The position numbers and the translations under genes are program-made. Shown here one piece after another: positions 2,271-23,970 of a stretch of 64,000 nt of DNA (its first letter is position 1; each line of letters begins with the position of its first letter). The notes under the pieces were generated by a model. The model worked only from the letters and a program-made list of their open reading frames with translations, did no database searches and was not told the DNA's origin. The stretch is taken from contig NC_052159.1 in the NCBI RefSeq assembly GCF_902713615.1, positions 128,980,432 through 129,044,431 of the forward strand, written 5' to 3'. This DNA comes from Scyliorhinus canicula (lineage: Eukaryota).

Positions 2271-3203
2271 TGTAGCCATGCTGGCCACGCAAAATGGACA
2301 CTGAGCCAAACTAAAATGGAAGACTGCTGGGAAACAGACAGTTTAGCCAGAACAGCAGTCTGCAAAGAGCAGTTTGCATTCTGCAGCAGCAGAAACCAGT
2401 TTGGGCTCAGGTGAAAAGACCTTAGCTAGGTGCAAATGGCAAAACGCTTTGCATGCTAATGAGGCCATCAGACTTGAACACCCACACAATAGATACATTT
2501 GGTTCTGAATGGACACATTCTAATCAAGACCCAGACATCGAGGCACCAGAAACCTCCAAACAAAAGGACATAAGAAACGCCCCCTCCATCACGGAGACCC
2601 CCTCGCATTGGGGAATTAATCCAGTATCGATAAGAAATTGATCCAATAGGTAGAGCCCGCCCGAGAAGAGGGAAGGACAATGGAACCCCTATAAAAGATA
2701 GGGACCTCGTGTTGTCCGGTCTGTTAAACCCGTGCTCCGGCTCTGACTGACATCTCGCATCCTGACTCCAGCCGTTGAGCACCAGCCGCCGAAACCGTAA
2801 GTTCAACGCTCGCTACGCGATCCAAGCCCACTAGACTCCCAAGTACCAGAACGCTTGCTGAAGGCTGCAGACAAAACCAGGACGAAGGCCTCGTTCTCTG
2901 ACCTTGCCTGTTCCTGTTAGATAAGTATTCTGTTTGCTTAAGTTTAGTTATAGCTTAGTCTCTTAGTGTGCATGAGTATTTATTATAACTGTATAATAAA
3001 TATTGATCGTTTGAACTTTACTAATCGGTGTATCGTCTTTATTACTTTGAACTTGACCTTGGAATACTTGTGACGTTGCCTATACGGCAACTGGCGACTC
3101 CAGAGCTAAATAATTACATAGAACAGAGCCTAGCAGTGTTAAGCACACGTCGAACTCGGAGGCGTGTTAATACACTCCAATAAACGCGTTTTACGCCCAT
3201 AGT
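2271..3203 (+). repeat. 5' LTR (last 13 bp displaced by an inversion)
   Basis: Matches 11196-12127; the only difference seen by eye is TATAAAAG vs TATAAAG. Confidence 0.95.
2643..3000 (+). promoter_or_regulatory. LTR promoter and processing signals: CCAAT (2643), GC box (~2656), TATA (2690), splice donor GTAAGT (2797), AATAAA (2995)
   Basis: Motifs in canonical order; all also present in the diverged solo LTR at 48127-49106. Confidence 0.7.
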
Positions 3204-3398
3204 CGGATGTCGCCACTAAATGTTGCACGTTTTACTATGGGCGTAAAACGCGTTTATTGGAGTGTATTAACACGCCTCCGAGTTCGACGTGTGCTTAACA
3301 CTGCTAGGCTCTGTTCTATGTAATTATTTAGCTCTGGAGTCGCCAGTTGCCGTATAGGCAACGTCACAAGTATTCCAAGGTCAAGTTCAAAGTAATAA
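3039..3398. repeat. Inverted repeat: 165-bp arms (3039-3203, 3234-3398) with a 30-bp spacer holding the reversed LTR end and PBS
   Basis: 3204-3398 is the reverse complement of the U5 end + TTTAG + TGGCGACATCCG. Confidence 0.95.
3204..3215 (-). promoter_or_regulatory. Primer binding site TGGCGACATCCG (inverted relative to the provirus); primer tRNA uncertain, resembles Arg(UCU) with a 1-nt bulge
   Basis: On the minus strand it follows the LTR end GCAACA after a TTTAG spacer and starts with TGG. Confidence 0.7.
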
Positions 3399-3582
3399 GC
3401 GAAATTCGGAAGTGTGTTTAGTGCATGCGTACTAACAGGGCTGTAAGGTAAAACTGAAAGCTTTTTGTTGCGACAAACTTTCGGTAGTTTTGTGATCGGA
3501 AAATAGCGTAAGCCGTACCCTTTTCACGAAACACCACCCCAACAACCCCCTGTTCCAAATTATAAAAAGAGAGTCAGAGGAA

Positions 3583-5331
3583 ATGGCCATGCAGGCAATG
3601 GAACGTCTGATGGATCCAGCAAAGTTTGTGGTCGCAGCGACCAGCAGCAGTAGCAGAGTAGGCCAGTGTCCCACGTGGGAGCTGGAACTCCGCAAATATT
3701 TACAAGGAAAGGGATGGCCCCTTTGGAAAGAGTTTTGTGCAAATGAGGAGACAGGTCCCGGAAGTATAGGTCATACTTGGTGGGAGAACCTCTCTCAAAT
3801 ACACAAAAAGAGTTTAGGTAAAGCACGCAAGCCGATGGCGATTGTGTCCTGCTTGGCACAGTTGCGAGGCGCAGAGGAGGTCATCAGGACGCTCCGGGCA
3901 GATTTAGAGGAAAGGAACCGAATGAGTAAGGTCGATGTCAGGGACATCGAGAAAGAAAACCTGGAATTAAAAGGGAAGTTGGCAGAGAAGGGTAGAGAGG
4001 TGGATGATGCCAAGAGGGCTCACCAGTCTTGTCTAGCTCATCTGAACAGTTCCCAGACCCAGTATGAGAAAGCCTATCAGGACGTGCAACGTGCCGTTCT
4101 GATAAGACAGGAATCGGAAAAGCAGGTGGAGGCATTGCAGAGGCAATGTTCTGATCTCAAAGCAGCTTTGAGAGCACTCCATGCTGCAACGACCGAACAA
4201 AGACAAAGCACAGTTGACCACGCGAAATGCAGGAAACAGATTGCGGAATTGCAATCTCTGCTTTCGGTGCAGAATGGCTTCCAAAGCACCTTTGGAGCTC
4301 AGTTAGATGGGGAAAACGCCCCAGATTGGCAGGAATTAAGCGAGACAGCGCAGCGTTATGTTCAGGGAACATGTGCGCCAGCAGCTCAGCAGAAACGACA
4401 GGCACCCCAACCCCCCACAGCTCAGATCATAACCGCACCCATGAATCCCGTAACCACACAGAGGAAAGCCGAATCAGAAGGCGCCCCAGACATAACTTAC
4501 ACCACCCCTTTAACAGTAACCCAGCTAAGGGACGCTTGTGAAAAGATCACTCCGTTCCTCCCCACCGCAGACCCCCACCAGTTTTTCGCTAAAGTAAAAC
4601 AGCAGGCTACCATGTACGGCCTGGATGAGAGAGAGCAGGTTAAGCTCACCGTGCTGAGCTTAGACCAGAGTGTAGTGGCAGCCCTCCCCGACCCACAAAA
4701 CGTGGCAGGAGGCAGCCTAGAGGAGATGCACACTGCCATTTTAGATGCCATCGGGTACAATAGAGGTGACCCCGTAGAAGGATTGAATAAGTGCAGGCAG
4801 AAGAGATCCGAACACCCCACAGCATTCGCAGGAAGGCTGTGGATTCATTTCAGCGCAGTTTTCGGACAGCTAGATAGAGCGCATTTAACCCGCGAAAACA
4901 TGGTTAAGTGGACGCGCACAATTATCTCACACGCAACAGAAGCAGGACAGAGCGCTTGCAATAGTTACGACCCCTCAGAAGAGGCCCATAACGAAAAATG
5001 GGTCCTGAAAAGATTGTCCCGCGCTTGGGAGCAATCGCTTCAGGCAAAAGGAAAAGTTAGATCCCCAGAAGAGGCTCAGGCTGCTGCAGATATCCAAGCA
5101 GTCAGAGAGCACCAGAAGCCCGCATGGGTAAATGAAGGCAAGAGCAGCCCTCAGCAGAAAGGACAGGAATGCTATAACTGTGGACAGTTAGGGCATTGGG
5201 CAAAAGAGTGCCAAGCACCCCAGCGATCTCAGAGAGGCCAGCAGACAGGCACTCTGAACCGCAACAAAGCAAAACCCATCCACAATGTAGCAGTACAGTC
5301 AGGACCCACCAATGTGGACGAGACGAACTGA
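3583..5331 (+). CDS. gag: Gag polyprotein (N-terminal coiled coil, capsid with MHR-like motif, single CCHC zinc knuckle)
   Basis: 582-aa intact ORF; CYNCGQLGHWAKEC; MHR-like QKRSEHPTAFAGRL; heptad-rich region ~aa 95-230. Confidence 0.92.
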   Translation: MAMQAMERLMDPAKFVVAATSSSSRVGQCPTWELELRKYLQGKGWPLWKEFCANEETGPGSIGHTWWENLSQIHKKSLGKARKPMAIVSCLAQLRGAEEVIRTLRADLEERNRMSKVDVRDIEKENLELKGKLAEKGREVDDAKRAHQSCLAHLNSSQTQYEKAYQDVQRAVLIRQESEKQVEALQRQCSDLKAALRALHAATTEQRQSTVDHAKCRKQIAELQSLLSVQNGFQSTFGAQLDGENAPDWQELSETAQRYVQGTCAPAAQQKRQAPQPPTAQIITAPMNPVTTQRKAESEGAPDITYTTPLTVTQLRDACEKITPFLPTADPHQFFAKVKQQATMYGLDEREQVKLTVLSLDQSVVAALPDPQNVAGGSLEEMHTAILDAIGYNRGDPVEGLNKCRQKRSEHPTAFAGRLWIHFSAVFGQLDRAHLTRENMVKWTRTIISHATEAGQSACNSYDPSEEAHNEKWVLKRLSRAWEQSLQAKGKVRSPEEAQAAADIQAVREHQKPAWVNEGKSSPQQKGQECYNCGQLGHWAKECQAPQRSQRGQQTGTLNRNKAKPIHNVAVQSGPTNVDETN

Positions 5332-8300
5332 CGGTGTTCGGGCTCCCCCACTTGGGTCTGTGACACACTATGGGACTCATCAGGGAGGCCCGTAGTCACG
5401 GCAAAAGTCAAAGGGAAGCCCATAGAGTTACTGTGGGACACAGGAGGATCCCGCACCACCATTAACTCCACAACCACGGCACACGCAGACACGTGGCCGA
5501 CCACCTCCACCATCACACTTAGCGGGTTCACCGGACACTCGCAGCAGGGACACATTACAGCACCCATAGCAATTCAGCTAGGGAACATTAGCACAAGGCA
5601 CCCCGTAGTTTTAGTAAATCTTCCCCGGACAGCAGAGCACATCCTGGGGATAGATTTTATGAACGCTCACAGCTTGTCGTTCGACCCAGTGAACCAGTGT
5701 GTCTGGCGAATGGCGAGATCAGACAGAGCCCCAGCCACCCTCACAGTAGGAGACTACGCTAATCGGATTAGCGCAGTGGGAGAGTACTCATTCGACCTGA
5801 CTACACTCCACACCGACAGACAAATTAAGGCCCTACTGAACAAACACAGGACAGCATTTGCAAGTCACCGTCATGACTGTGGCAGAATGACTGGACAAGT
5901 TCATGTTACCGGACAGGACCCCCGACCGCAAAAGCAGTATAGATTTCCCCTCGAGGCAGAGGTGGAAATAGAAAAAGTTATAGGCAGCTTGTTGGACCAA
6001 GGTGTACTGAGAACGGTAGCCTCCACCAACAATGCCCCTATTTGGCCAGTGAGGAAGCCCGATGGATCATGGCGTCTGACCATCGATTATCGGGAACTCA
6101 ATAAAGTAACCCCCGCAGTAGCCCCAACGGTAGCTACTAGTCCCGAGACCATGCTCAAGCAGGGTCTCAACGCCAAGTACTTCACGGTATTGGACATCAG
6201 TAATGGATTCTGGTCAATACCATTGGCAAAAGCGTGCCAATACAAATTCGCATTCACTTTTAAAACACAGCAGTACACGTGGACATGCCTCCCACAAGGA
6301 TTCCACAATTCACCCTCCATTTTCCACCGACAGCTGGCAAGTGGATTAGAAAAATTTTCCCGACCCGAATGTCTGGTACAGTATGTAGACGACCTACTAC
6401 TGCAGACAGACACAAAGGCAGAGCACATTTCGCTTCTGGCCGAACTCCTGGAACTCTTAACTGAAATTGGCTGTAAAGTTAACCCGAAAAAGGCCCAAAT
6501 ATTGGAAAGTAAAGTGATGTATTTGGGATCAGTCATCACGCACGGCAAACGCGAGATCGAATTCAAAAGAATTGATTCGATTGTCAAATTGCCCCTTCCC
6601 CAGAATGTATCAGCCCTCCGGTCGTTTTTAGGACTGGTTGGCTATTGTCGGAACCACATAGACGGATGCGCGACAAAAGCCGCCCCACTTTCAGACCTCC
6701 TTAAGAAAGGAGCCCCCTGGGAATGGCTTCCGCAGCATACAGGCGCTGTGGAAGAGTTGAAACGAGCCCTTAGTGCAGCACCCGCGCTGCTAGTCCCCGA
6801 CCAACTTTCACCGTACGCAATAGAGGTAGCGAGCACCGATCTGACCCTCTCGGCCGTGTTGCTTCAGGAACGGCACGAGCAGCTAAGACCAGTGGCTTAT
6901 GCCTCCCGACTGTTAGACCCGGTAGAACAAGGATTTTCAGCCTGTGAGAGGCACCTCCTTGCTGTCTTCTGGGCAGTGCAGTATTTCTCATACATCACCG
7001 GACTCAACCCCATTACTATTCTGACCGAACATACACCCACACAGCTACTACTAGACGGTCGACTGAAGGACGGTTCAGTTAGCCAGATTAGGGCAGCTAG
7101 GTGGACCCTACTTTTACAAGGACGGGACATTACAGTAAAACGGACACGCACACACACATACTTAGCAGACAACCTCCAATACCCCGGACAGCCCCATGAC
7201 TGTGAAATTGTAGCTCCCCTGCATAACACAGGACCCTTTTTAGCAAAAACACCCTCCAGGAAGATAGGGAACCCGAAACAAAGCCCCCAGCCCACAGACA
7301 CGTGTGGACCCTTGAGGATTTATGTAGACGGTTCCTCCACAGTTTTAAATGGTGAGCGTATCACAGGATGCGGCATCTATGTAGAGGACGCGCAGGGGCG
7401 CGCTCTCGAAGAGATAGCTCTTAAGTTACCAGGTCACTTAGGCGCGCAGGCAGCAGAGCTAGCAGCCATAGCGTACATAGTGGACCACCCCGATTCTTTC
7501 CCCAGCCCAGCGGACATATATTCAGACAGCTTATATGTATGCAATAGCCTAACAGATTTTCTGCCCCTGTGGAGGACACGAGGTTTTGTCTCCGCAGACG
7601 GAAAACCCCTTCCATCAGCCCCCTTACTCCAGCATATCCTAGAGAAAGCGAAGGACAGGACCTTCGGCATTATAAAAGTTCGCAGCCACCATAGGTCATC
7701 ACCCCCTGGGAATGTAAAAGCCGACGCGTTGGCTAAGGCAGGTTCTAGGAGAGGACACTTATGGACCCCCCCAGCTAGCGCACCAGCTAGCGCCCCTGTG
7801 AGCGCAGTCCAAGTCCCACAGACTGATATTAAAGATCTCGTGGCAGCACAGAAACAGGACGGAGACCTCAGGGAGGTTTTCAAGGGAAACTTTGTGCCTG
7901 CTTACGAGCACTTTAAACACGCACTGACCACACATGAGGGTGTGATCATTAAGGACCAACTTTATGTGGTCCCACAGCAGGACAGGAATCAGATGATTGC
8001 CTTGTTCCATGACGGACACGGGCATCAGGGAATTGATGCAACAACGAGGCACCTCAGGCAACTCTGTTGGTGGCCTAATCTCAGGAATGATGTAACGCAC
8101 TACATAGAGAATTGCCTGATTTGTGCTCAGAATAACCCGGAGCGGTATTCTAAGAAAGCACAACTTCGGCATACTCGCCCAGTTAACGGCCCTTGGACAA
8201 ACCTCCAGATCGACTTTATAGGTCCATTGCCCCCTTGCAGGAATGGCTATAAATACGTTCTGGTGGTGATAGATACCTTTACCAAGTGGGTAGAGGCATT

Positions 8301-9558
8301 TCCCTCACGAACAAATACAGCAAAGACAGCTGCAAAGATCCTGACCCACCACATCTTCACGAGATGAGGTTTACCCCGAAGTATCGATTCGGACCAGGGA
8401 TCTCACTTTACAGGACGGGTCATGAGGAACGTCCTGACAATATTCGGAATCAAACAGAACTTCCATATTGCGTATCATCCACAGTCCAGCGGGATTGTGG
8501 AGTGCATGAATCGGACCCTAAAAACTACCCTTAGGAAAATGGTTCAAGAGAATAATTCCACATGGGATTCAGTGCTCCCATTTGCACTTATGTTCATAAG
8601 GAACACTGTCTCCACATCGACAGGATACACACCACACACACTCATGACCGGACGCCCTATGAAAGGTACAGAATTCCTTTTAGGACTGGACATGACAAGC
8701 CCCGAAGTGACGGCCCTCACACATGAAAAGGCAGTTAAAGATCTAGTTGAGACTGTGAGGTCTGCACAGCTCGCAGCCGCAGTCCAGCTAGGGAAACGCC
8801 GACAGCAACGGACTGCCTGTTTCAATAAGACCGTCCACACCACAGAATTCCAGGTTGGGCAACAGGTAATGTTATCTGTTTATAACCCCAGCAGTTTTTT
8901 GGCTCCAAAATATTCCGGTCCCTACTCAATTTCGGACAAAATTAGCCCCTCCGTTTACAGAATAAAATATCCTAATGGGAAGACCGCGTGGTTCCATATA
9001 AACCAGTTAAAGGCATATGGAACACAGGCCAACCATGCTCACCATGTCCTGCTGGATGCAGCAGAACACTACACCCCGCCCACCAGAGACACTTTTCCAC
9101 CATCCCCCTCACAGACCAGTTCATCAACGGACTCGCCCACGACTCCGCCCACAGACCACAACAGACCACGCCCCGACACGCCCACAAGCTGCCACAGCAG
9201 AGACAGCAGGACTGACACTGACTCTGAAGACAGCGACACCACACAGCCATACAGCCCACACTGCACCAACTACGACCCCGACTCCAGTGACCCCATGGAA
9301 GTCACCTACCTCAAATATCCAGAACCACCACCCAACCCCGACTACCCCGACAACACACTCGACACTACACAATGGCACAGGGACAATTCATACAGACTTG
9401 TCCGCAATGACGAGAGTGACCCCCGGTCACACAATTCCAAAATAGCATGCCTGATCCACACAAGGGTGTGGGATCCGGGAGAGCAGGACGACACGGTGTC
9501 TGACTCCCGACACGGCAACCCCTTTGTGACCCTGTTCACAGAGGCAGAATCAAAGTGA
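5332..9558 (+). pseudogene. pol: Pol (PR-RT-tether-RNase H-IN), in frame with gag via UGA; one premature stop at 8365-8367
   Basis: LLWDTGGS (~5431); LPQGF and YVDD (6382); degenerate RH (IEVAS/ERHLLA/TEH); intact RH (YVDGS at 7321, AELAA, YSDS, GNVKAD); IN HHCC, LQIDFIG, DSDQG, GIVE, GPY; ORFs starting at 3583, 5659 and 8422 share one frame. Confidence 0.93.
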
Positions 9559-10510
9559 GGTGTCCAGATGATGCAAGATAGGAGTCGTTTGAGGGAAACG
9601 ATGTCCTTTCTGATGGAACCTGCACGTATGTTTGTCTTCGTTTTATGTTTGTTTGTCTCAGGATTGTACATTGTTCAGCTGGAGGATGGACATCTTCTTT
9701 TCAGCTGAAAAGATTGTGACCACCTCACATACACGTTAGCTTGTCCGCAGATACTTTTGAGAACTTCGGTTTGATTGGAGATCTTTTCCAAAGTTGTAAC
9801 ACTTGTGACAGCCTGGTGAGCAGCTCACCGTATCGTCTAAAATATCTGAAGACCAGCTCATGTCCTCAGTTGGAGCATCTTGGCTCCCATGGTTTTTTTT
9901 TTAAGGTGCCCCTCTATTCGGCGAAATAGAGACTGCAAGTCATGGTCAACACATTCGTACCCGTTTTTTCCAGGTTACTCAGGCAGTGGACAAACGGCAC
10001 TGAGGACCCGCCCTGTCTGAGAACCCACCCTTGGTCAGCCAAGCTCGGGTATGGCACAGCACGCCCTACCCGGGGATCCCATCCAACTCGTACCCGTAGC
10101 GGCCCATACGCAACTCATTCGGATGTTTGTTTCCAAGTTTGTTTTCATTTTACGTTAGGTAGCCCTTCGGCCGCCATCCCACATGCTATTTACATCCGGG
10201 AACATTCGGATGGTAAATCAGCAAAGCCTGCGAGACGGCTCGCAGAAGGAAGGATTGTTAGGTGTATGCTGGTCTTTAAATTCGCTTTTTGAAAAAAAAA
10301 AATGAGGGGAGTCACAGGGTGTGACTTAGCCAGTCATTTTAAAGGGTCAATTGGGTTTTGAAAGACAGATGCACTAACAAGTAAAGGTCTTAAACTGTGT
10401 ATTGACAGATACTGTGCTTGATCCCAAAGGTTTCAAAGGACGAGACAGAAGTCGAAGCCAGGATTGTCAATACCGGAGGAAGAAGGAAGAGAAAGAAGAA
10501 GAACAGCAAA

Positions 10511-10864
10511 ATGATGGAAGCCCACTTATTACTGTTTAATGTCATATGTATATGTGTGGAAACAAGACACGTTTCCCCCACAACCCCCACCGTAAATGTT
10601 AGTACAACAAACCCCCAGTGCTCAGCTCTGATCAGCGAGGTTCAGACCTGGTGTACTAAATTCATGACGTGGTACTCCATGTCCTACATAATCGAATCAC
10701 TGTTGGTGATCGCGATCCTCATCGTCCTAGTGCAGACCCTCAGGTTGAGGAAATGGAAGAGGAGAGCCTCTCGTTCCAGCACCTCACCCATCTATAGAGT
10801 GCAATCCCCCATCTTCGGATTCCACCAAACCCCTCAACCCCTCACTGATTACAACACTCTGTAA
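10511..10864 (+). CDS. 117-aa small single-pass membrane protein at the env position (FAST-like candidate)
   Basis: ATGATGG in good Kozak context; hydrophobic N-terminus, NVS sequon, C-x10-C, TM IIESLLVIAILIVLVQTL, RLRKWKRR, C-terminal YNTL; upstream branch point ACTAAC (10373) and acceptor CAG (10406-10408). Confidence 0.75.
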   Translation: MMEAHLLLFNVICICVETRHVSPTTPTVNVSTTNPQCSALISEVQTWCTKFMTWYSMSYIIESLLVIAILIVLVQTLRLRKWKRRASRSSTSPIYRVQSPIFGFHQTPQPLTDYNTL

Positions 10865-11185
10865 ATAAAATTCAGCCATGTATTATATTGTTCCATACTC
10901 GACTGCCGAGTTGGGAAGTGTGATGTTGTGGTGTGAATGGTTAAGATTTTAGAGTGATTAAATGTTTAAGTTAAGGTTAAGGTTAATAGTGATAGGTAGA
11001 GGTTCCCAATTGTAGTAATGCATGTCCCCTTTGACATAGGGCCAAGTAGAAATGTTAGTTAAAATTTTTTTTCTCTTCTTCCCATAGTTTAGAACAGAGT
11101 AGAACAGGAACTGGCAAGAGGTCAGAACACAAGGAAGGCAAAGTACATAGGTGATCCTTCACAATAGTATGATTGTGAGGATCAC

Positions 11186-11195
11186 AAGGAGGGAA
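11186..11195 (+). promoter_or_regulatory. Polypurine tract
   Basis: AAGGAGGGAA abutting the TG of the 3' LTR. Confidence 0.85.
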
Positions 11196-12140
11196 TGTAG
11201 CCATGCTGGCCACGCAAAATGGACACTGAGCCAAACTAAAATGGAAGACTGCTGGGAAACAGACAGTTTAGCCAGAACAGCAGTCTGCAAAGAGCAGTTT
11301 GCATTCTGCAGCAGCAGAAACCAGTTTGGGCTCAGGTGAAAAGACCTTAGCTAGGTGCAAATGGCAAAACGCTTTGCATGCTAATGAGGCCATCAGACTT
11401 GAACACCCACACAATAGATACATTTGGTTCTGAATGGACACATTCTAATCAAGACCCAGACATCGAGGCACCAGAAACCTCCAAACAAAAGGACATAAGA
11501 AACGCCCCCTCCATCACGGAGACCCCCTCGCATTGGGGAATTAATCCAGTATCGATAAGAAATTGATCCAATAGGTAGAGCCCGCCCGAGAAGAGGGAAG
11601 GACAATGGAACCCCTATAAAGATAGGGACCTCGTGTTGTCCGGTCTGTTAAACCCGTGCTCCGGCTCTGACTGACATCTCGCATCCTGACTCCAGCCGTT
11701 GAGCACCAGCCGCCGAAACCGTAAGTTCAACGCTCGCTACGCGATCCAAGCCCACTAGACTCCCAAGTACCAGAACGCTTGCTGAAGGCTGCAGACAAAA
11801 CCAGGACGAAGGCCTCGTTCTCTGACCTTGCCTGTTCCTGTTAGATAAGTATTCTGTTTGCTTAAGTTTAGTTATAGCTTAGTCTCTTAGTGTGCATGAG
11901 TATTTATTATAACTGTATAATAAATATTGATCGTTTGAACTTTACTAATCGGTGTATCGTCTTTATTACTTTGAACTTGACCTTGGAATACTTGTGACGT
12001 TGCCTATACGGCAACTGGCGACTCCAGAGCTAAATAATTACATAGAACAGAGCCTAGCAGTGTTAAGCACACGTCGAACTCGGAGGCGTGTTAATACACT
12101 CCAATAAACGCGTTTTACGCCCATAGTAAAACGTGCAACA
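11196..12140 (+). repeat. 3' LTR
   Basis: TG...CA termini, preceded by PPT, followed by TSD ACTG. Confidence 0.95.
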
Positions 12141-12589
12141 ACTGACATGTCCAATGGTCCCTGGGCTAGGACACAAGCAGTGTACGCTGCAGCGCTTTTG
12201 GTTATCCAAATAAACTGCAGTTCAAATGAAGCCTGGCCTTGGTGGCATGGCTACACTTTCCAAGCCCACCTTGTTATGGCTGTTCAAAATTTTATATGCT
12301 TCAATCAAGACATCTCTCACTCTTCTAAACTCCAGTGGAAACAAGCCAGTCTGCCCAACTATTCATCATTTCAGGTGTCAGCTCTACTCTGAATCGATGT
12401 TAGATGTTAACATCTAACAGACATTAGCTACATGCATGTAATGCCTCCATAAAGGTGGAGGCTGGCATGCTTCACATCAGAAACATGTGAAAACACAGTG
12501 GATGCCATTTTGGATCTTTCATAGCATCCAAATAACAAACACCACCAAGCCCAATTTCTCACCCAAAGGGGGGAAATTTATGAATGTAA

Positions 12590-13690
12590 TAAGAACATAA
12601 AAACTAGGAGCAGGAGTAGGCCATCTGGCCCCTCGGGCCTGCTCCGCCATTCAATAAGATCATGGCTGATTTTTTTGTGGGTTTAGCTCCACTTACCTGG
12701 CTGCTCTCCGTAACCTTTTATTCCTTTACTGTTCAAAAATCTATCTACCTTTGCCTTAAAAGCATTCAACGAGGTAGACTCAACTGCTTCGCTGGACAAG
12801 GAATTCATTTGGGTGAAGAAGTTCCTCCTCAACTCAGTCCTAAACTGCTCCCCATTATTTTGAGGACATGCCCTCTCGTTCTAGTTTTACCCGCCAGTGG
12901 AGACAATCTCCCTGCTTTCCTATCTATTCCCTTCATAATTTTATATATTTCTATAAGATCCTCCCTTATCCTTCTAAATTTTAATGAGTATTGTCCCAGT
13001 CTATTTAGTCTCTCCTCATAAGCTAATCTTCTCAACTCTGGAATCAACCTAGTGAATCTTCTCTGCACCCTCTCCAGTCTCAGTAAATCCTTTCTCGAGT
13101 AAGGAGGTCAAAACTGTACATTGTACTCCAGGTGTGGCCTCACCAGCACCCAAACAGCTGCACCATAACCACCCTGTTTTTAAACTCCATCCCTCTCACA
13201 ATGAAGCACAGAATTCCACTTACCTTCTTAATTACTTGCTGCACCTGCAAACCAACTTTTTTGCGGTTCATGCACAAGCACAATTTTAAAAAATTTAAAT
13301 AAAAGTCCATTTTGCCGTTATTCCTACCAAAATGGATGACCTCACATTTATCAACATTGAACTCCATCTGCCAGACCCTTGCCCACTCACTTAAACCATC
13401 TATGTCCCTCTACAGACGTGTAGTGTCCTCTGCACACTTGGCTCTACCACTCATCTTCTGTGAACTTTGACACATTACACTTGGTCCCCAACTCCAGATC
13501 ATCTATGTAAATTGTACACAATTGCAGACCCAACACTGATCCCTGAGGCACACCACTAGCCACTGATCGCCAACCAGAAAAACACCCATTTATCCCCACT
13601 CTTTGCTTTCTGTCAGTTAACCGATCCTCTATCCATGCTCATACATTACCTGTAACACCATGTGCCTTTATTTTATGCAGCAGCCTTGTG
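12590..13690 (-). mobile_element. CR1/HER1 LINE 3' fragment
   Basis: QRRFTRLIPELRRLAYEERL and MEFNVDKCEVIHFG peptides; CR1 3' tail. Confidence 0.88.
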
Positions 13691-19630: not shown

Positions 19631-19975
19631 TCGTAGAATTTACAGTGCAGAAGGAGGCCATTCAGCCCATCGAGTCTGCACCGGCTCTTGGAAAGAGCAC
19701 CCTACCCAAGGTCCACACCTCCACCCTATCCCCATAACCCAGTAACCCCACCCAACACTAAGGGCAATTTTGGACACTAAGGGCAATTTATCATGGTCAA
19801 TCCACCTAACCTGCATATCTTTGGACTGTGGGAGGAAACCGGAGCAGCCGAAGGAAACTCACACAGACATGGGGAGAACGTGCAGACTCCACACAGACAG
19901 TGACCCAAGCCGAGAATCGAACCTGGGACCCTGGAGCTGTGAAGCAATTGTGCTAACCACAATGCTACCGTGCTC
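19631..19975 (-). mobile_element. HE1-type SINE inserted in Rex1
   Basis: Full SINE; TSD CCCACTAT at 19623-19630 and 19976-19983. Confidence 0.9.
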
Positions 19976-21127
19976 CCCACTATGGTCGTATCGTCAACAA
20001 ACTTGGAGATGGAGTTGGAACCAAGTTTTGCCACACAGTCGTATGCGTACAGGGAGTAGAGTAGGGGGCTAAGTACGCAGCCTTGCGGGGCCCCGATGAC
20101 TATTGTGAAGGAGGTGTTGTTGTTCATTCTTACTGATTGTGGTCTGTTGGTCAGAAAATCGAGGATCCAGTTGCAGAGTGGAGAGCCAAGTCCTAGGTTT
20201 TGGATCTTTGATATGAGCTTGGCTGGGATTATAGTGTTGAAGGTGGAGCTGTAGTCAATAAAAAGAAGTCTGATGTAGGAGTCTGTGTTTTCGAGATGCT
20301 CTAGGGATGAGTGTAGGGCCAGGGAAATGGTGTCTGATGTGGACCGGTTGCAATGGTATGCGAATTGCAGTGGATCATGGCGTTCTGGGAGTATGTAGGT
20401 GATGCGTTTCATGATCAACCTCTCGAAGCACTTCATTACGATTGATGTCAGGACCACTGTATGGTAGTCTTTGAGGCACGTTGCCTGGTTTTTCTTTGGT
20501 ACCGGTATGATGGTGGTCTTCTTGAAGCAGGAGGGGACCTCGGAGTGGAGTAGGGACAGGTTAATGATGTCTGTCACTACCTCTGTCAGTTGGTCCACGC
20601 AGGCTCTGAGTAAATGACCAGGGATCCCGTCCGGGCCCGTCGCCTTCCGAGGTTTCTCTTTCAGGAAGGCTGATCTGACTTCGGAAGCTGTGATGGTGGG
20701 TATGGGTGAGTTATGGGCTGCTGGGGCACTCGACAGCAGATTGTTAGTTACCTACTCGAACCGAGCATAGAATGCATTGATTTCATCGGGGAGGGGTGCA
20801 CTGCTGCCAGAAATACTGCTCGGCTTCGCTTTGTAGCCCGTTATGTTGTTTAGTCCTTGCTACAATCGCCGAGAGCCTGTCTGTGACTCTAGCTTAGTTT
20901 GATATTCTCTCTTGGCATCTCGGATGGCTTTGCGGAGGTCGTACCTGGATTTCTTGTATATGTCAGGGTCGTCTGCCTTGAACGCCTCAAATCTATCCTT
21001 CAGTAAGGAGTCAATCTCGCGATTGAGCCAAGGTTTCTGGTTAGGGAATGTACGTACTACTTTCTTTGGCATGCAGTCGTCCACACATTTGCTGATGAAG
21101 TCTGTGACGGTGGTGGCGTACTCATTT

Positions 21128-22811
21128 TTTTTTTTTTATAAATGTTTTTATTCAGTTTTCGTATTTTATATTGAACAAATTACAAATTGTTAGGAGAGAG
21201 AAAAAAAAAACAAACAAAAACAAACACGCAAAAATTAACATACATATTTACAGGTAAGCATCTTCGTAGTAGTAACTGCGCCCCCCCCCCCCCCCTCCCC
21301 CCCTCAACATGTTTATTTAGCTTGGTTTTGGGCCTTAGCTAGCCATCGAACCCCCGTAACGAACCTGTAGCCCCCCCCCCCCCTCCCGCTACCTTCCCCC
21401 GACTATTCTTCCTCTTGTACATTGGCCACAAATAGGTCCCGGAACAGTTGCATGAATGGCTCCCACGTTCTGTGGAAGCCGTCGTCCGACCCTCGGATGG
21501 CAAATTTGATTTTCTCCATTTGGAGAGATTCCGAGAGGTCGGACAGCCAGTCCGCAGCTCTGGGCGGTGCTGCTGACCGCCAGCCAAACAGGATTCTACG
21601 GCGGGCGATCAGGGAGGCAAAGGCAAGGGCATCCGCCCTCCTCCCCAGGAATAGATCTGGCTGTTCTGAAACCCCGAAGACCGCCACTATCGGGCATGGC
21701 TCCACCCTCACTCCCACCACTTTGGACATTACCTCGAAGAAGGCTGTCCAGTACTCCACGAGTCTGGGGCAGGACCAGAACATGTGGGCGTGGTTGGCCG
21801 GGCCTCTTTGGCACCGTTCACATCTGTCTTCCACCTCCGGGAAGAACCTACTCATACGGGTTCTTGTTAAGTGGGCTCTATGTACCACTTTTAGTTGCGT
21901 CAGGCTGAGCCTTGCGCACGTGGAGGTGGAGTTGACCCTATGCAGTGCTTCGCTCCAGAGTCCCCACCCGATCTCCATCCCCAGGTCGTCCTCCCATTTC
22001 CTCCTTGTTGCGTCCAGTACGGTGTCGTCCCTATCTACCAGTCGGTCATACATGTCACTACAGTTCCCTTTCTCTAGGATACTTGCGTCCAGTAGGTCTT
22101 CCAGTAGTGTCTGTCGTGGCGGTTGTGGGTACGTCCTTGTCTCCTTTCGTAGGAAGTTTTTGAGCTGCAGGTAATGTAGCTCGTTCCCCCCAGCTAGCTG
22201 AAATTTCTCTGTCAGTTCGTCCAGTGTTGCGATCCTGTCGTCCGTGTATAGGTCCCTGACTGTCAGTGTCCCCCCGTCCTGCCTCCACCTTTTGAAGGTG
22301 GCGTCGGTCAGTGCTGGTTTGAACCTATGGTTGTTGCAGATGGGAGCCCTGTTCGACATTTTGGTCAGGCCAAGTTGCTGCCGCAGTTGGTTCCAGGATT
22401 GGAGGGTGGCTGTCACCACTGGGCTGCTGGAGTGTTTTTTGGGTGGGGATGGGAGTGCTGCCGTGGCGAGGGCCCGGAGGGAGGTTCCCATGCAGGAGGC
22501 CTCCTCCGCACGCACCCACTCAGCTTCTGGCTCCTGGATCCATCCCCTTACTCGCTCGGCTGTTGCTGCCCAGTGGTAGAATTGTAGATTCGGGAGGGCT
22601 AACCCTCCCCTGGTTTTTGTTTTTTGTAAGACCTTCTTTGGGATCCTAGCATTTTTACCCCCCCATACGAACGCCATGATGAGTTTGTCCAGCGCTTTGA
22701 AAAAGGCCTTGGGGATGTAGATCGGAATGGATCTAAACAGGAAGAGGAACCTGGGCAGTACGTTCATTTTGATCGTCTGAACTCTCCCCGCGAGGGAGAG
22801 CGGGAGTGTGT
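21128..22811 (-). mobile_element. 5'-truncated young L1-clade LINE
   Basis: Poly(A) tail; TSD TGGTGGCGTACTCATTT at 21111 and 22812; open ORF2 C-terminus. Confidence 0.92.
21403..22811 (-). CDS. L1 ORF2 C-terminal part (uninterrupted, 5'-truncated)
   Basis: SLAGRVQTIKMNVLPRFLFLF; CERC-x7-HMFWSC cysteine-rich motif. Confidence 0.8.
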
Positions 22812-22849
22812 TGGTGGCGTACTCATTTAACTTGGTCACTGAGACGCTT

Positions 22850-23970
22850 AAAAGACAGGAAGTTAAAGTAGATGTACTGGAGCAGGTTGAGGAAGGAAGT
22901 AGTTCGAGACATTAACCTAGTGGGGAGATGTTTACATTTCTGAAAGTTCTTCCAAAATTTGAGTAAAAGGATGTGGAAGCTTTTCTTTAAAAAGGTAGTT
23001 AAACAAATGGAATGACCTGAATAAATTTCAACATTACTTTTACAATGAAGGCTGGTACAGACAGCTACTGAGTTGGATGCATCATTGTCGGAAGAGGTAT
23101 CTGTAGATCATGATATAGTCAAGAAAGCAATCCTAGTGTATATGAGTTGGTCCCTGAGGCATAGAGGCGGAAATTTCAAAACGCAGGAAAATAGCCTGGA
23201 CAAACACATATTGAATTTGCAAGGGTGAAGCAAAATCATTTTGATTGCTGGATACGGGCATTAAAGAGAGACCAGATTTGTTTCCATCACCCTTTTAAAC
23301 CAGAGAAGGAAAGAAGGTGGAAAAAAACAAATAGTCAGGGAAAAGATGGAACAGTTGGGAATGAAGAGGAAATGTCACCTCAGATCGAAAGGGAAGGTGC
23401 TAAGGGTGGAAGTGACATTCAGAGAACGAAGTGTTTCCATTGTAATAAAGTGAGACATGTGAGGGCAGATTGTTGGAAATTAAATGGAAGACTAATTGCA
23501 ATAGTATGAAAGGAAGCATCTGAAAAAGAAACGGCTGCTCAAACTGCAGCAGTGGTGAAGGTGAAATATGCTCTTTCAGAGTCAGTGAGAAAAGGGGGAT
23601 AGACCTTAAGATAGTTCAGATAATTATTTAAGTATTGGAGACGTACTGGAGAAGGGAATCAAGATATTGGAGATTCAGGATGTTTTGTTCCAAAGGGAGA
23701 AGGTTTCCCTTACTCATCCAAGAAAATATGTAAACAAATTAAAATTTTGAAAGTTACAGGAGCAGATCAATCATTGATGATAGCTGATGACACAATTTGT
23801 ATTCCAGGAAGTTCTATGAAGGAAAAAGTATTAATAAGGGATATTACATGAAGGGATGACCTGTTTCTTTGTGTCAAGGTAATTTAAGAATTTTGTAGAT
23901 TGAATTGTTATCATGGGAAATTTCCTATTGGAGGAATAGATTTCATCCTTGGTAATAACTTCGCTTGCGG
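22850..23970 (+). pseudogene. Degenerate Gypsy (Gmr1-like) gag-protease remnant
   Basis: LPKFE.KDVEAF, YELVPEA, CFHCNKVRHVRADC knuckle, PIGGIDFILGN. Confidence 0.65.

Follow-up and report, generated by a model that had tools for sequence, protein, structure and literature searches.

Within the 64,000-nucleotide (nt) stretch of the Scyliorhinus canicula genome analyzed here (assembly GCF_902713615.1, contig NC_052159.1, positions 128,980,432 to 129,044,431 of the forward strand; hereafter the window), a retrovirus-like element flanked by target-site duplications (TSDs) carries two long terminal repeats (LTRs), a gag gene, a pol gene joined to gag through a stop codon, and a small membrane-protein gene (Table 1). 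Every motif named in an original prediction made from the letters of the window was found in place, including the LTRs, the 4-bp target duplication (here ACTG), and the WDTG, YVDD, IEVAS, ERHLLA and TEH motifs of pol; the near-identity of the LTRs noted there amounts to 0 substitutions and one indel in 932 aligned nt. Four features go beyond that prediction: a stop codon in integrase, an inversion at the primer site, the lack of an envelope (env) gene, and the gene for a 117-amino-acid (aa) membrane protein.

Table 1. Coordinates of the element and its features within the window.
Feature	Position	Strand	Remarks
Retrovirus-like element	2271-12140	+	TGT...ACA ends
Target-site duplications ACTG	2267-2270 and 12141-12144	+	flank both element ends
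5' LTR	2271-3203	+	final 12 nt absent
TATAAA 2690; GTAAGT donor motif 2797; AATAAA 2995 and 3179	within 5' LTR	+	
Inverted duplication	3204-3398	-	178 nt from the LTR end and 17 nt covering spacer and primer-binding site; found in this copy alone
Primer-binding site for tRNA-Arg(UCU), inverted and truncated	3204-3215	-	family primer-binding site matches 3' end of genomic tRNA-Arg(TCT)
gag, 582 aa, TGA stop	3583-5331	+	open reading frame and Pfam
TGA-CGG gag/pol junction, in frame	5329-5334	+	predicted read-through site
pol (protease, reverse transcriptase, tether, RNase H, integrase, Pro/Ser/Thr-rich tail)	5332-9558	+	stop inside in this copy
Candidate splice acceptor	10399-10408	+	motif in 39/39 copies
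Small membrane-protein gene, 117 aa	10511-10864	+	open in 37/37 anchored copies
Polypurine tract	11178-11195	+	sequence identical in 37/37 two-LTR copies
3' LTR, 945 nt	11196-12140	+	

The copy in the window is defective. Its integrase core is broken by a TGA at 8365-8367, and an inverted duplication takes the place of about 118 nt of leader at the primer-binding site (PBS). The junction of this inversion occurs a single time genome-wide; because its right end falls within a natural 35-nt inverted repeat (LTR 768-802 versus leader), the rearrangement likely arose by template switch, although it may instead be an assembly error.

Pfam matches along pol comprise an aspartyl protease, RVT_1, RT_RNaseH/RT_RNaseH_2 (residues 465-596), RNase_H (662-805), Integrase_H2C2, rve and an SH3 domain. 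The protease reads WDTG at 5434 and the reverse transcriptase (RT) YVDD at 6382; the best solved-structure matches to the RT are the foamy virus and MLV enzymes. Behind the RT lies a degenerate Ty3-type RNase H, the tether (6724-7119), in which three positions that hold D, E and D in 37, 35 and 35 of 37 Gypsy sequences read A, H and E (within IEVAS at 6820, ERHLLA at 6946 and TEH at 7024). A second RNase H (7315-7746) follows with D-E-D-D present, confirming the predicted succession of a dead Ty3-type RNase H and an intact one. The integrase comprises an HHCC region (7969-8139), the core, and a GPY motif at 8917.

As had also been predicted, pol continues from gag through an in-frame stop codon: the stop is TGA in all 35 sampled copies with an open gag, in the context TGA-CGG in 34 of them, and occasional UGA-CGG read-through would yield Gag-Pol. 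The CCHC knuckle and long coiled coil ascribed to Gag were both recovered, the former as a single knuckle at 5170-5211 (Pfam zf-CCHC, E=6.5e-8) and the latter as a long predicted helix across residues 84-237 (~3832-4293; predicted local distance difference test, pLDDT, ~80 over 121-200) that fits a coiled coil. Gag has neither an N-terminal glycine nor a standard late motif and may therefore need another membrane anchor. A capsid region is probable; its sole pointer to a retroelement capsid is that the language-model look-alikes of Gag are Ty3/Gypsy capsid clusters, the capsid models (single-sequence and from a 14-row alignment) being poor (pLDDT 46) and neither Foldseek nor a profile search of the PDB returning a match to the capsid fold.

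Searches of the whole genome place the element in a large family. Counts of exact patterns came to 2,346 for LTR-end/PBS junctions, a figure that pools the young and older subfamilies, and to 2,421 for young-type LTR starts, many of which form pairs ~8.9 kb apart; reversed-pattern controls gave 0 in both cases. An RT probe yielded 2,581 candidates, the best 40 of which match at 99-100% identity. Our sample consists of the 39 best-matching copies (40 with the window copy). Two whole LTRs are present in 37 of the 39, and 18 of these 37 pairs carry no substitution, the maximum being 3; the 26 substitutions across all pairs correspond to ~0.7-1.7 million years at the two rates that PMC10699275 and PMC4422223 give for sharks. 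TSDs of the same copies are perfect 4-bp repeats in 34 cases, with one 5-bp, one mismatched and one tandem. Junction number, LTR divergence in the sampled copies and RT identity thus bear out the recent amplification that had been proposed from one LTR pair; "very recent" holds in the sense of the last few million years at shark rates and does not extend to activity today.

Many sampled copies remain intact: of 40, 35 keep an open gag and 26 keep both gag and pol open and in frame. Variants common to at least two copies have ratios of nonsynonymous to synonymous substitution (dN/dS) of 0.03-0.07 in gag, protease through RNase H, and integrase (gag, 0.06), showing that gag and pol are under purifying selection. 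An older subfamily has the same layout, with Pol 80-90% identical and LTR pairs 93-97% identical in two full copies, and older-still fragments in the genome are ~40% identical. No related loci were found in the viral contigs, and the literature searched, which excluded subscription papers, Repbase and Dfam, holds no description of this family.

Several variant copies accompany the family. Loci L132-L142 and L149 belong to a related but older family and are degraded, their Pol ~40% identical to that of the window and 61-76% identical to the RNase H of P0002; the 3' regions of older related loci are degraded and interrupted. Three derivatives (L159, L166 and L167) lack pol but still carry gag and a 3' region that includes the small gene, the last of which may have been kept because it lies near the 3' end, and L166 has a different Gag C-terminus bearing its own CCHC knuckle. 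Nine loci (L039, L146, L160-L165 and L167) are 97% identical internally with LTRs just 79-83% identical in part of U3; judging from the sequences, these LTRs are variants or have been exchanged between family members. Head-to-tail proviruses with one LTR in common and ~8.9 kb spacing occur at L030, G000:C1:102284470-102302232 and G000:C2:225875646-225884879, and primer junctions lie ~18 kb apart at C1:48.33-48.39 Mb. In L033 and L044 the 3' end of the 5' LTR is shortened and different just ahead of the primer site.

Between pol and the 3' LTR, a three-frame scan of 9559-11195 hit no env family. The alignment of all 39 sampled copies runs through the entire 3' region and shows no additional gene, the four longer copies checked all owe their length to secondary insertions rather than env, and an equally short gap separates pol from the small gene in the older subfamily. 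A 120-codon open reading frame (ORF) at 9930-10292 was ruled out as a gene, with dN/dS ~1 and frequent frameshifts. The small gene, by comparison, has 0 stops in 40 copies. Its 117-aa product has a hydrophobic N-terminus (a predicted signal peptide), a Thr-rich ectodomain with an N-glycosylation motif, a Trp/Tyr-rich juxtamembrane stretch, one transmembrane (TM) helix (~57-77), and then RLRKWKRR and a short tail. In the older subfamily the N-terminal half differs but keeps the same character, and the core is conserved. Across all 11 comparisons with that subfamily the core has dN/dS of 0.13-0.20 (RT, ~0.1), against 0.76-1.36 for a neighboring control ORF in the 9 of 11 with enough cover, showing purifying selection on the small membrane gene; within the young family its dN/dS is 0.37-0.52, from small counts. 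All 39 copies have a donor motif in R and the acceptor motif at 10408, there is no ATG from 2720 to the donor, and the first ATG past the acceptor is the start of the small gene, such that an RNA spliced between these sites would yield the small protein.

Among named proteins, those closest to the element are Pols of frogs, coelacanth and turtles that are annotated as "NYNRIN-like" or "Gypsy integrase-like" (40-53% identical). Over RT-RNase H the frog/coelacanth group is 45-51% identical to the element, versus 33-34% for eel loki Pol, and unnamed sequences reach 59-80% as fragments only. For RT alone, the median identity within this clade is 51%, compared with 48% to a snakehead-type locus, 33-40% to 16 lokiretroviruses and 24-32% to Gypsy elements. 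We built RT trees with IQ-TREE (63 taxa, 252 columns) and FastTree (132 taxa), together with a concatenation of RT, tether and integrase (42 taxa, 662 columns, containing no class II retroviruses); rows with short or missing domains were dropped (3 for RT, 26 for RNase H, 39 for integrase, 21 for tether), and the integrase comparison, which bore on the loki/CGIN1 type, included no true NYNRIN sequence. References came from viral contigs and protein searches, the latter supplying the foamy names, and loki rows were labelled by two motifs from the supplement of PMC7947760 and by host names. The MuLV, FLV, REV, WDSV and Xen-1 rows were named by match to supplement text. Labels are presumptive for the row of snakehead retrovirus and for the alpha, beta, delta and lenti rows, and locus L119 (10,688 nt) we take, from its length, to be snakehead retrovirus.

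In the RT tree, the window element and 13 relatives are monophyletic (97.3/94), with loki (100/100) and foamy (100/100) sequences apart, and the clade is sister to snakehead retrovirus at 71/75. The concatenation recovers the clade at 97.2/81 and does not favor the snakehead sister relation; its best tree branches in the order Gypsy, loki, this clade, then foamy, snakehead and epsilon/gamma (the last three joined at 99.2/99), with the clade and the canonical retroviruses united at 97.3/87. The active RNase H scores closest to snakehead and epsilon sequences and is not grouped with loki. In the phylogenies proposed as a check on the original prediction, RT does not nest in Gypsy; tether and integrase score closest to loki. 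This domain pattern fits a slow-evolving basal lineage and a recombinant equally, and long-branch attraction among the other lineages is possible. Two proteins, P0280 (cuckoo) and P0250 (softshell turtle), sit on very long branches near the clade and could be domesticated or decayed members of it.

Taken together, the element is a defective copy of a young, high-copy, env-less endogenous retrovirus (ERV) family that likely spreads by copying itself within its host and likely belongs to a deep clade, also present in frogs, coelacanth and turtles, outside the loki, foamy and Gypsy groups. Transcription from the LTR would supply Gag and Gag-Pol, integration would follow with a 4-bp duplication, and amplification would proceed in cis without env. 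More tentatively, and with less confidence than we would give an even proposition, the clade may be the earliest-branching lineage of canonical retroviruses, between loki and the foamy, snakehead and orthoretroviral groups: in approximately unbiased (AU) tests at equal search effort, a position sister to all canonical retroviruses is kept on RT (p=0.48).

A possible precedent for the small protein comes from the sORF2 of insect MDG1-group elements and the reovirus FAST (fusion-associated small transmembrane) proteins (PMC11952523). As in the former, an env-less LTR element here encodes a single-pass protein of ~100 aa with a short ectodomain and a polybasic stretch immediately after the TM helix; some insect sORF2 genes also lie downstream of pol. 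The features by which such proteins are recognized (60-200 aa, one TM helix, a short ectodomain and a juxtamembrane polybasic stretch) are all present here, in a host element that, unlike those of insects, is vertebrate and retrovirus-grade. We propose that the small protein acts at the cell surface in Env's stead, anchoring the unmyristoylated coiled-coil Gag, and that it might help capsids move from one cell to another in contact with it, a role suggested for the insect sORF2/FAST-like proteins. We regard such a fusion or transfer role as somewhat unlikely, and the conjunction of a basal position with a FAST-like small fusogen in place of Env as quite improbable; if true, a vertebrate retrovirus-grade element would be infectious without an envelope gene. 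The literature searched, which excluded subscription papers, describes no small TM gene for a vertebrate env-less ERV.

A number of observations weigh against these interpretations. The sampled copies were chosen as those nearest to the window copy, which biases youth and intactness upward, and env-less status rests on this sample, an env-bearing member being possible among the ~2,300 unsampled copies. Deep nodes of the RT tree are weak (canonical retroviruses, 67.6/70), AU tests keep the clade with foamy viruses (p=0.35 on RT; 0.125 on the concatenation) and with snakehead retrovirus (p=0.11), as well as the foamy-outside arrangement on the concatenation (p=0.058), and the trees were built without fish foamy-like ERVs (FLERVs), the coelacanth endogenous foamy virus, ERV-L, ERV4, Odin, or XtrFLERV/CmiFLERV. 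Integrase and tether score closest to loki (medians of 211 and 89 bits, versus 131 and 5 for foamy), and integrase alone falls near loki at low tree support, where AU tests cannot choose. With regard to the small protein, the N-myristoylation motif frequent among FAST and sORF2 proteins (MGxxxS/T) is absent, the starts being MME in young copies and MKS in older ones, and its signal-peptide-like start and glycosylation motif are unlike either. The indel control is weak because the small gene contains just two distinct indels (0 of 2 shift the frame, versus 56 of 67 in flanking DNA). The splice donor that the original prediction placed in R stands as a motif, downstream of the TATA box, but splicing itself was not seen: the donor-acceptor joint is missing from four contig sets of four studies (their RNA origin guessed; 30 of 30 bins of one natural copy covered), which constitutes no evidence either way.

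The alternative that survives best, at close to but below an even chance, is that the family is a full-length, env-less member of a group already reported, either the frog/chimaera cluster of XtrFLERV and CmiFLERV, known from pol fragments, or clade Huo (CmiERV lineage I), which is related to snakehead retrovirus. This view is compatible with most of the interpretation above and would alter only the novelty of the clade. A cluster of frog and shark FLERVs (XtrFLERV/CmiFLERV; CX312570.1) has been reported, from pol only (PMC5512871), and the element's nearest relatives include proteins of Xenopus tropicalis. Snakehead retrovirus, clade Huo and CmiERV lineage I (PMC6001957, PMC4422223) share the dual RNase H and give the top RT identity of any reference. 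The two groupings that the AU tests keep also speak for this alternative. So does L119, our presumed snakehead locus, which has one CCHC knuckle, an in-frame gag/pol stop and a dual RNase H; the "mosaic matching no standard genus" of the original prediction is accordingly present as a layout but is not peculiar to this element. Against such membership, the node joining foamy, snakehead and epsilon/gamma excludes the clade, the snakehead stop is TAG rather than TGA, its integrase and tether are far from those described here, and it has an env. CmiERVs, which like XtrFLERV/CmiFLERV were compared by description only, are defined by having env (PMC4422223).

It is also possible, although we lean away from it, that the small gene is a shrunken env, its signal peptide brought up against the membrane anchor and tail by an internal deletion, and kept for a purpose other than fusion, such as trafficking, receptor interference or counteracting a host restriction factor. 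It occupies the env position behind a splice-acceptor motif, and its signal-peptide-like start, Trp-rich juxtamembrane stretch and TM helix resemble the two ends of an Env protein. No Pfam family scores above the cut-off, and the weak sub-threshold matches are to small viral type I glycoproteins. Arguing against this origin, the small protein matches no Env or other ORF among 4,051 sequences that include loki, foamy, snakehead and epsilon loci, the 950 nt upstream hold no env remnant, and the same small form is kept across subfamilies separated by a dS of 0.8-1.1. Other accessory roles account for what this origin and the transfer role leave.

The original prediction inclined toward lokiretroviruses and Odin elements. 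That the family is a lokiretrovirus, or an Odin-like element, that lost env and extends the group to a new host class now appears very unlikely, in spite of a dual RNase H with a loki-close tether, an integrase near loki, a coiled-coil Gag, and an env-less organization shared, together with the dual RNase H, with the Odin elements of sea anemones (PMC9040795). AU tests reject a grouping of the clade with loki on RT (p=0.006) and on the concatenation (p=0.016 and 0.009), lokiretroviruses are fully supported as monophyletic without this clade, RT identity to them falls below the within-clade median, and the active RNase H is placed elsewhere; the rejection also speaks against an Odin-type RT, expected as sister to loki, although Odin itself was not in the trees. 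Motifs of the frog and coelacanth relatives are absent from the searched part of the supplement to the loki paper (PMC7947760), a paper that reports loki to be missing from the chondrichthyan genomes screened, and the paramyxovirus/pneumovirus F-related Env of lokiretroviruses was not found in 9559-11195.

Least probable is an ordinary Ty3/Gypsy element that gained a second RNase H independently, since, despite Ty3/Gypsy look-alikes of Gag, an integrase with GPY and an SH3 tail near Gypsy, and dual-RNase-H elements that do nest in Gypsy, its RT falls with loki and retroviruses, separate from 12-36 Gypsy sequences at 98.5/100 (99.6/100 on the concatenation), shows low identity to them, finds its best structures in foamy and MLV RT, and is followed by a different arrangement from the single active RNase H of Gypsy; the RT tree upholds the earlier assignment to retrovirus grade. 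Three reference proteins (P0377, P0387 and P0389) also have two RNase H domains, with an RT that nests in Gypsy and a second RNase H that adjoins loki's; the position of the RT rules them out as Odin, and they possibly represent another independent RNase H capture.

Comparison with further described groups agrees with the earlier view that the element fits no standard genus, but removes the weight given to its "spuma-like" traits, which are not diagnostic because YVDD (seen in gamma, epsilon-like, loki and foamy RTs), a 4-bp TSD (typical of ERV1; PMC4299795) and a coiled-coil Gag (reported in the loki-derived Bik, foamy viruses and ERNI; bioRxiv 10.1101/2024.03.25.586437) are common to other groups; relatives of the element, moreover, read LIDTGA without the W. 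Foamy viruses and FLERVs (PMC5512871) do resemble the element: their LTR is long, R contains a donor motif, and Gag forms a coiled coil and has no glycine at its N-terminus. They differ in having a tRNA-Lys primer (PMC5512871), env and accessory genes, where this family has tRNA-Arg and neither env nor accessory genes. Foamy Gag lacks a CCHC knuckle and foamy pol begins at its own start in another frame (layout in part after PMC8278194), in contrast to the CCHC and in-frame TGA found here; an in-frame TGA is reported in XtERV-S (PMC8278194). The shark family ERV-Spuma.0-Sca (PMC10699275) likewise comprises hundreds of elements with long LTRs and is placed near foamy viruses, but its dimensions (9,220 nt; LTR, 866; gag, 2,259; pol, 2,946; env-annotated ORF, 1,326 nt) are unlike those of the present family (~9,815 nt; LTR, 949; gag, 1,749; pol, 4,227; small gene, 354 nt), and six short motifs of the element were not found in its supplements, in which long entries are incomplete. 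The 5-bp TSD, missing zinc knuckle and missing GPF/Y of ERV3/ERV4 (PMC4299795) contrast with the 4-bp TSDs, CCHC and GPY observed.

Arguments on how LTR retrotransposons became retroviruses draw on a small number of deep lineages (loki, Odin and FLERVs), to which this family adds hundreds of near-intact, full-length copies of another; in the best tree the clade lies at the base of canonical retroviruses with integrase and tether still loki-like. Databases label this deep clade "NYNRIN-like" or "Gypsy", and screens that require env (PMC4422223, PMC10435555) would miss the family. With a small gene in the env slot, env-independent cell-to-cell spread, shown in insect retrotransposons, becomes testable in vertebrates.

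Analysis of the leader points to the use of a particular primer. A genomic tRNA-Arg(TCT) gene has a 3' end to which the family PBS corresponds: of 39 copies, 5 match it exactly, 28 carry one additional base and 6 take other forms. The only "tRNA gene" found to bear the extra base of the commonest form proved to be another provirus copy, so that base is a viral variant. Approximately 60 nt further on, a second site complements the anticodon arm of spliced tRNA-Arg at 16-17 of 18 bases in 39/39 young copies and at 15-16 of 18 in 5/5 copies of the older subfamily, and the U5-leader segment folds below its doublet shuffles (z ~-3.9). From these sequences we infer priming by tRNA-Arg(UCU) with two-site pairing, in which the mature tRNA would be held at the primer site and the anticodon-arm site inside a long U5-leader stem. 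In one copy (L056:230-460; G000:C14:133068400-133069000), a continuous tRNA-Arg complement that spans the spliced anticodon junction takes the place of the leader stretch separating the two sites, which would follow if RT had once continued into the mature tRNA; this copy and the proposed two-site pairing would together form a clean natural record of primer use.

Other mobile elements are found in and around the family. Inserts within young copies (L160:7095-9244, L162:7002-10000 and L164:8390-9501) include what we take to be a 488-aa transposase-like ORF, Penelope-like pieces of RT and one piece of RT from a LINE; because they lie inside young copies, those elements moved after this family did. 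Elsewhere in the window, on the minus strand, 19777-20751, 21403-22911 and 12829-13409 contain non-LTR remnants, presumably a 324-aa RT ORF, the C-terminal part of a LINE ORF2 (502 aa) and CR1-like pieces.

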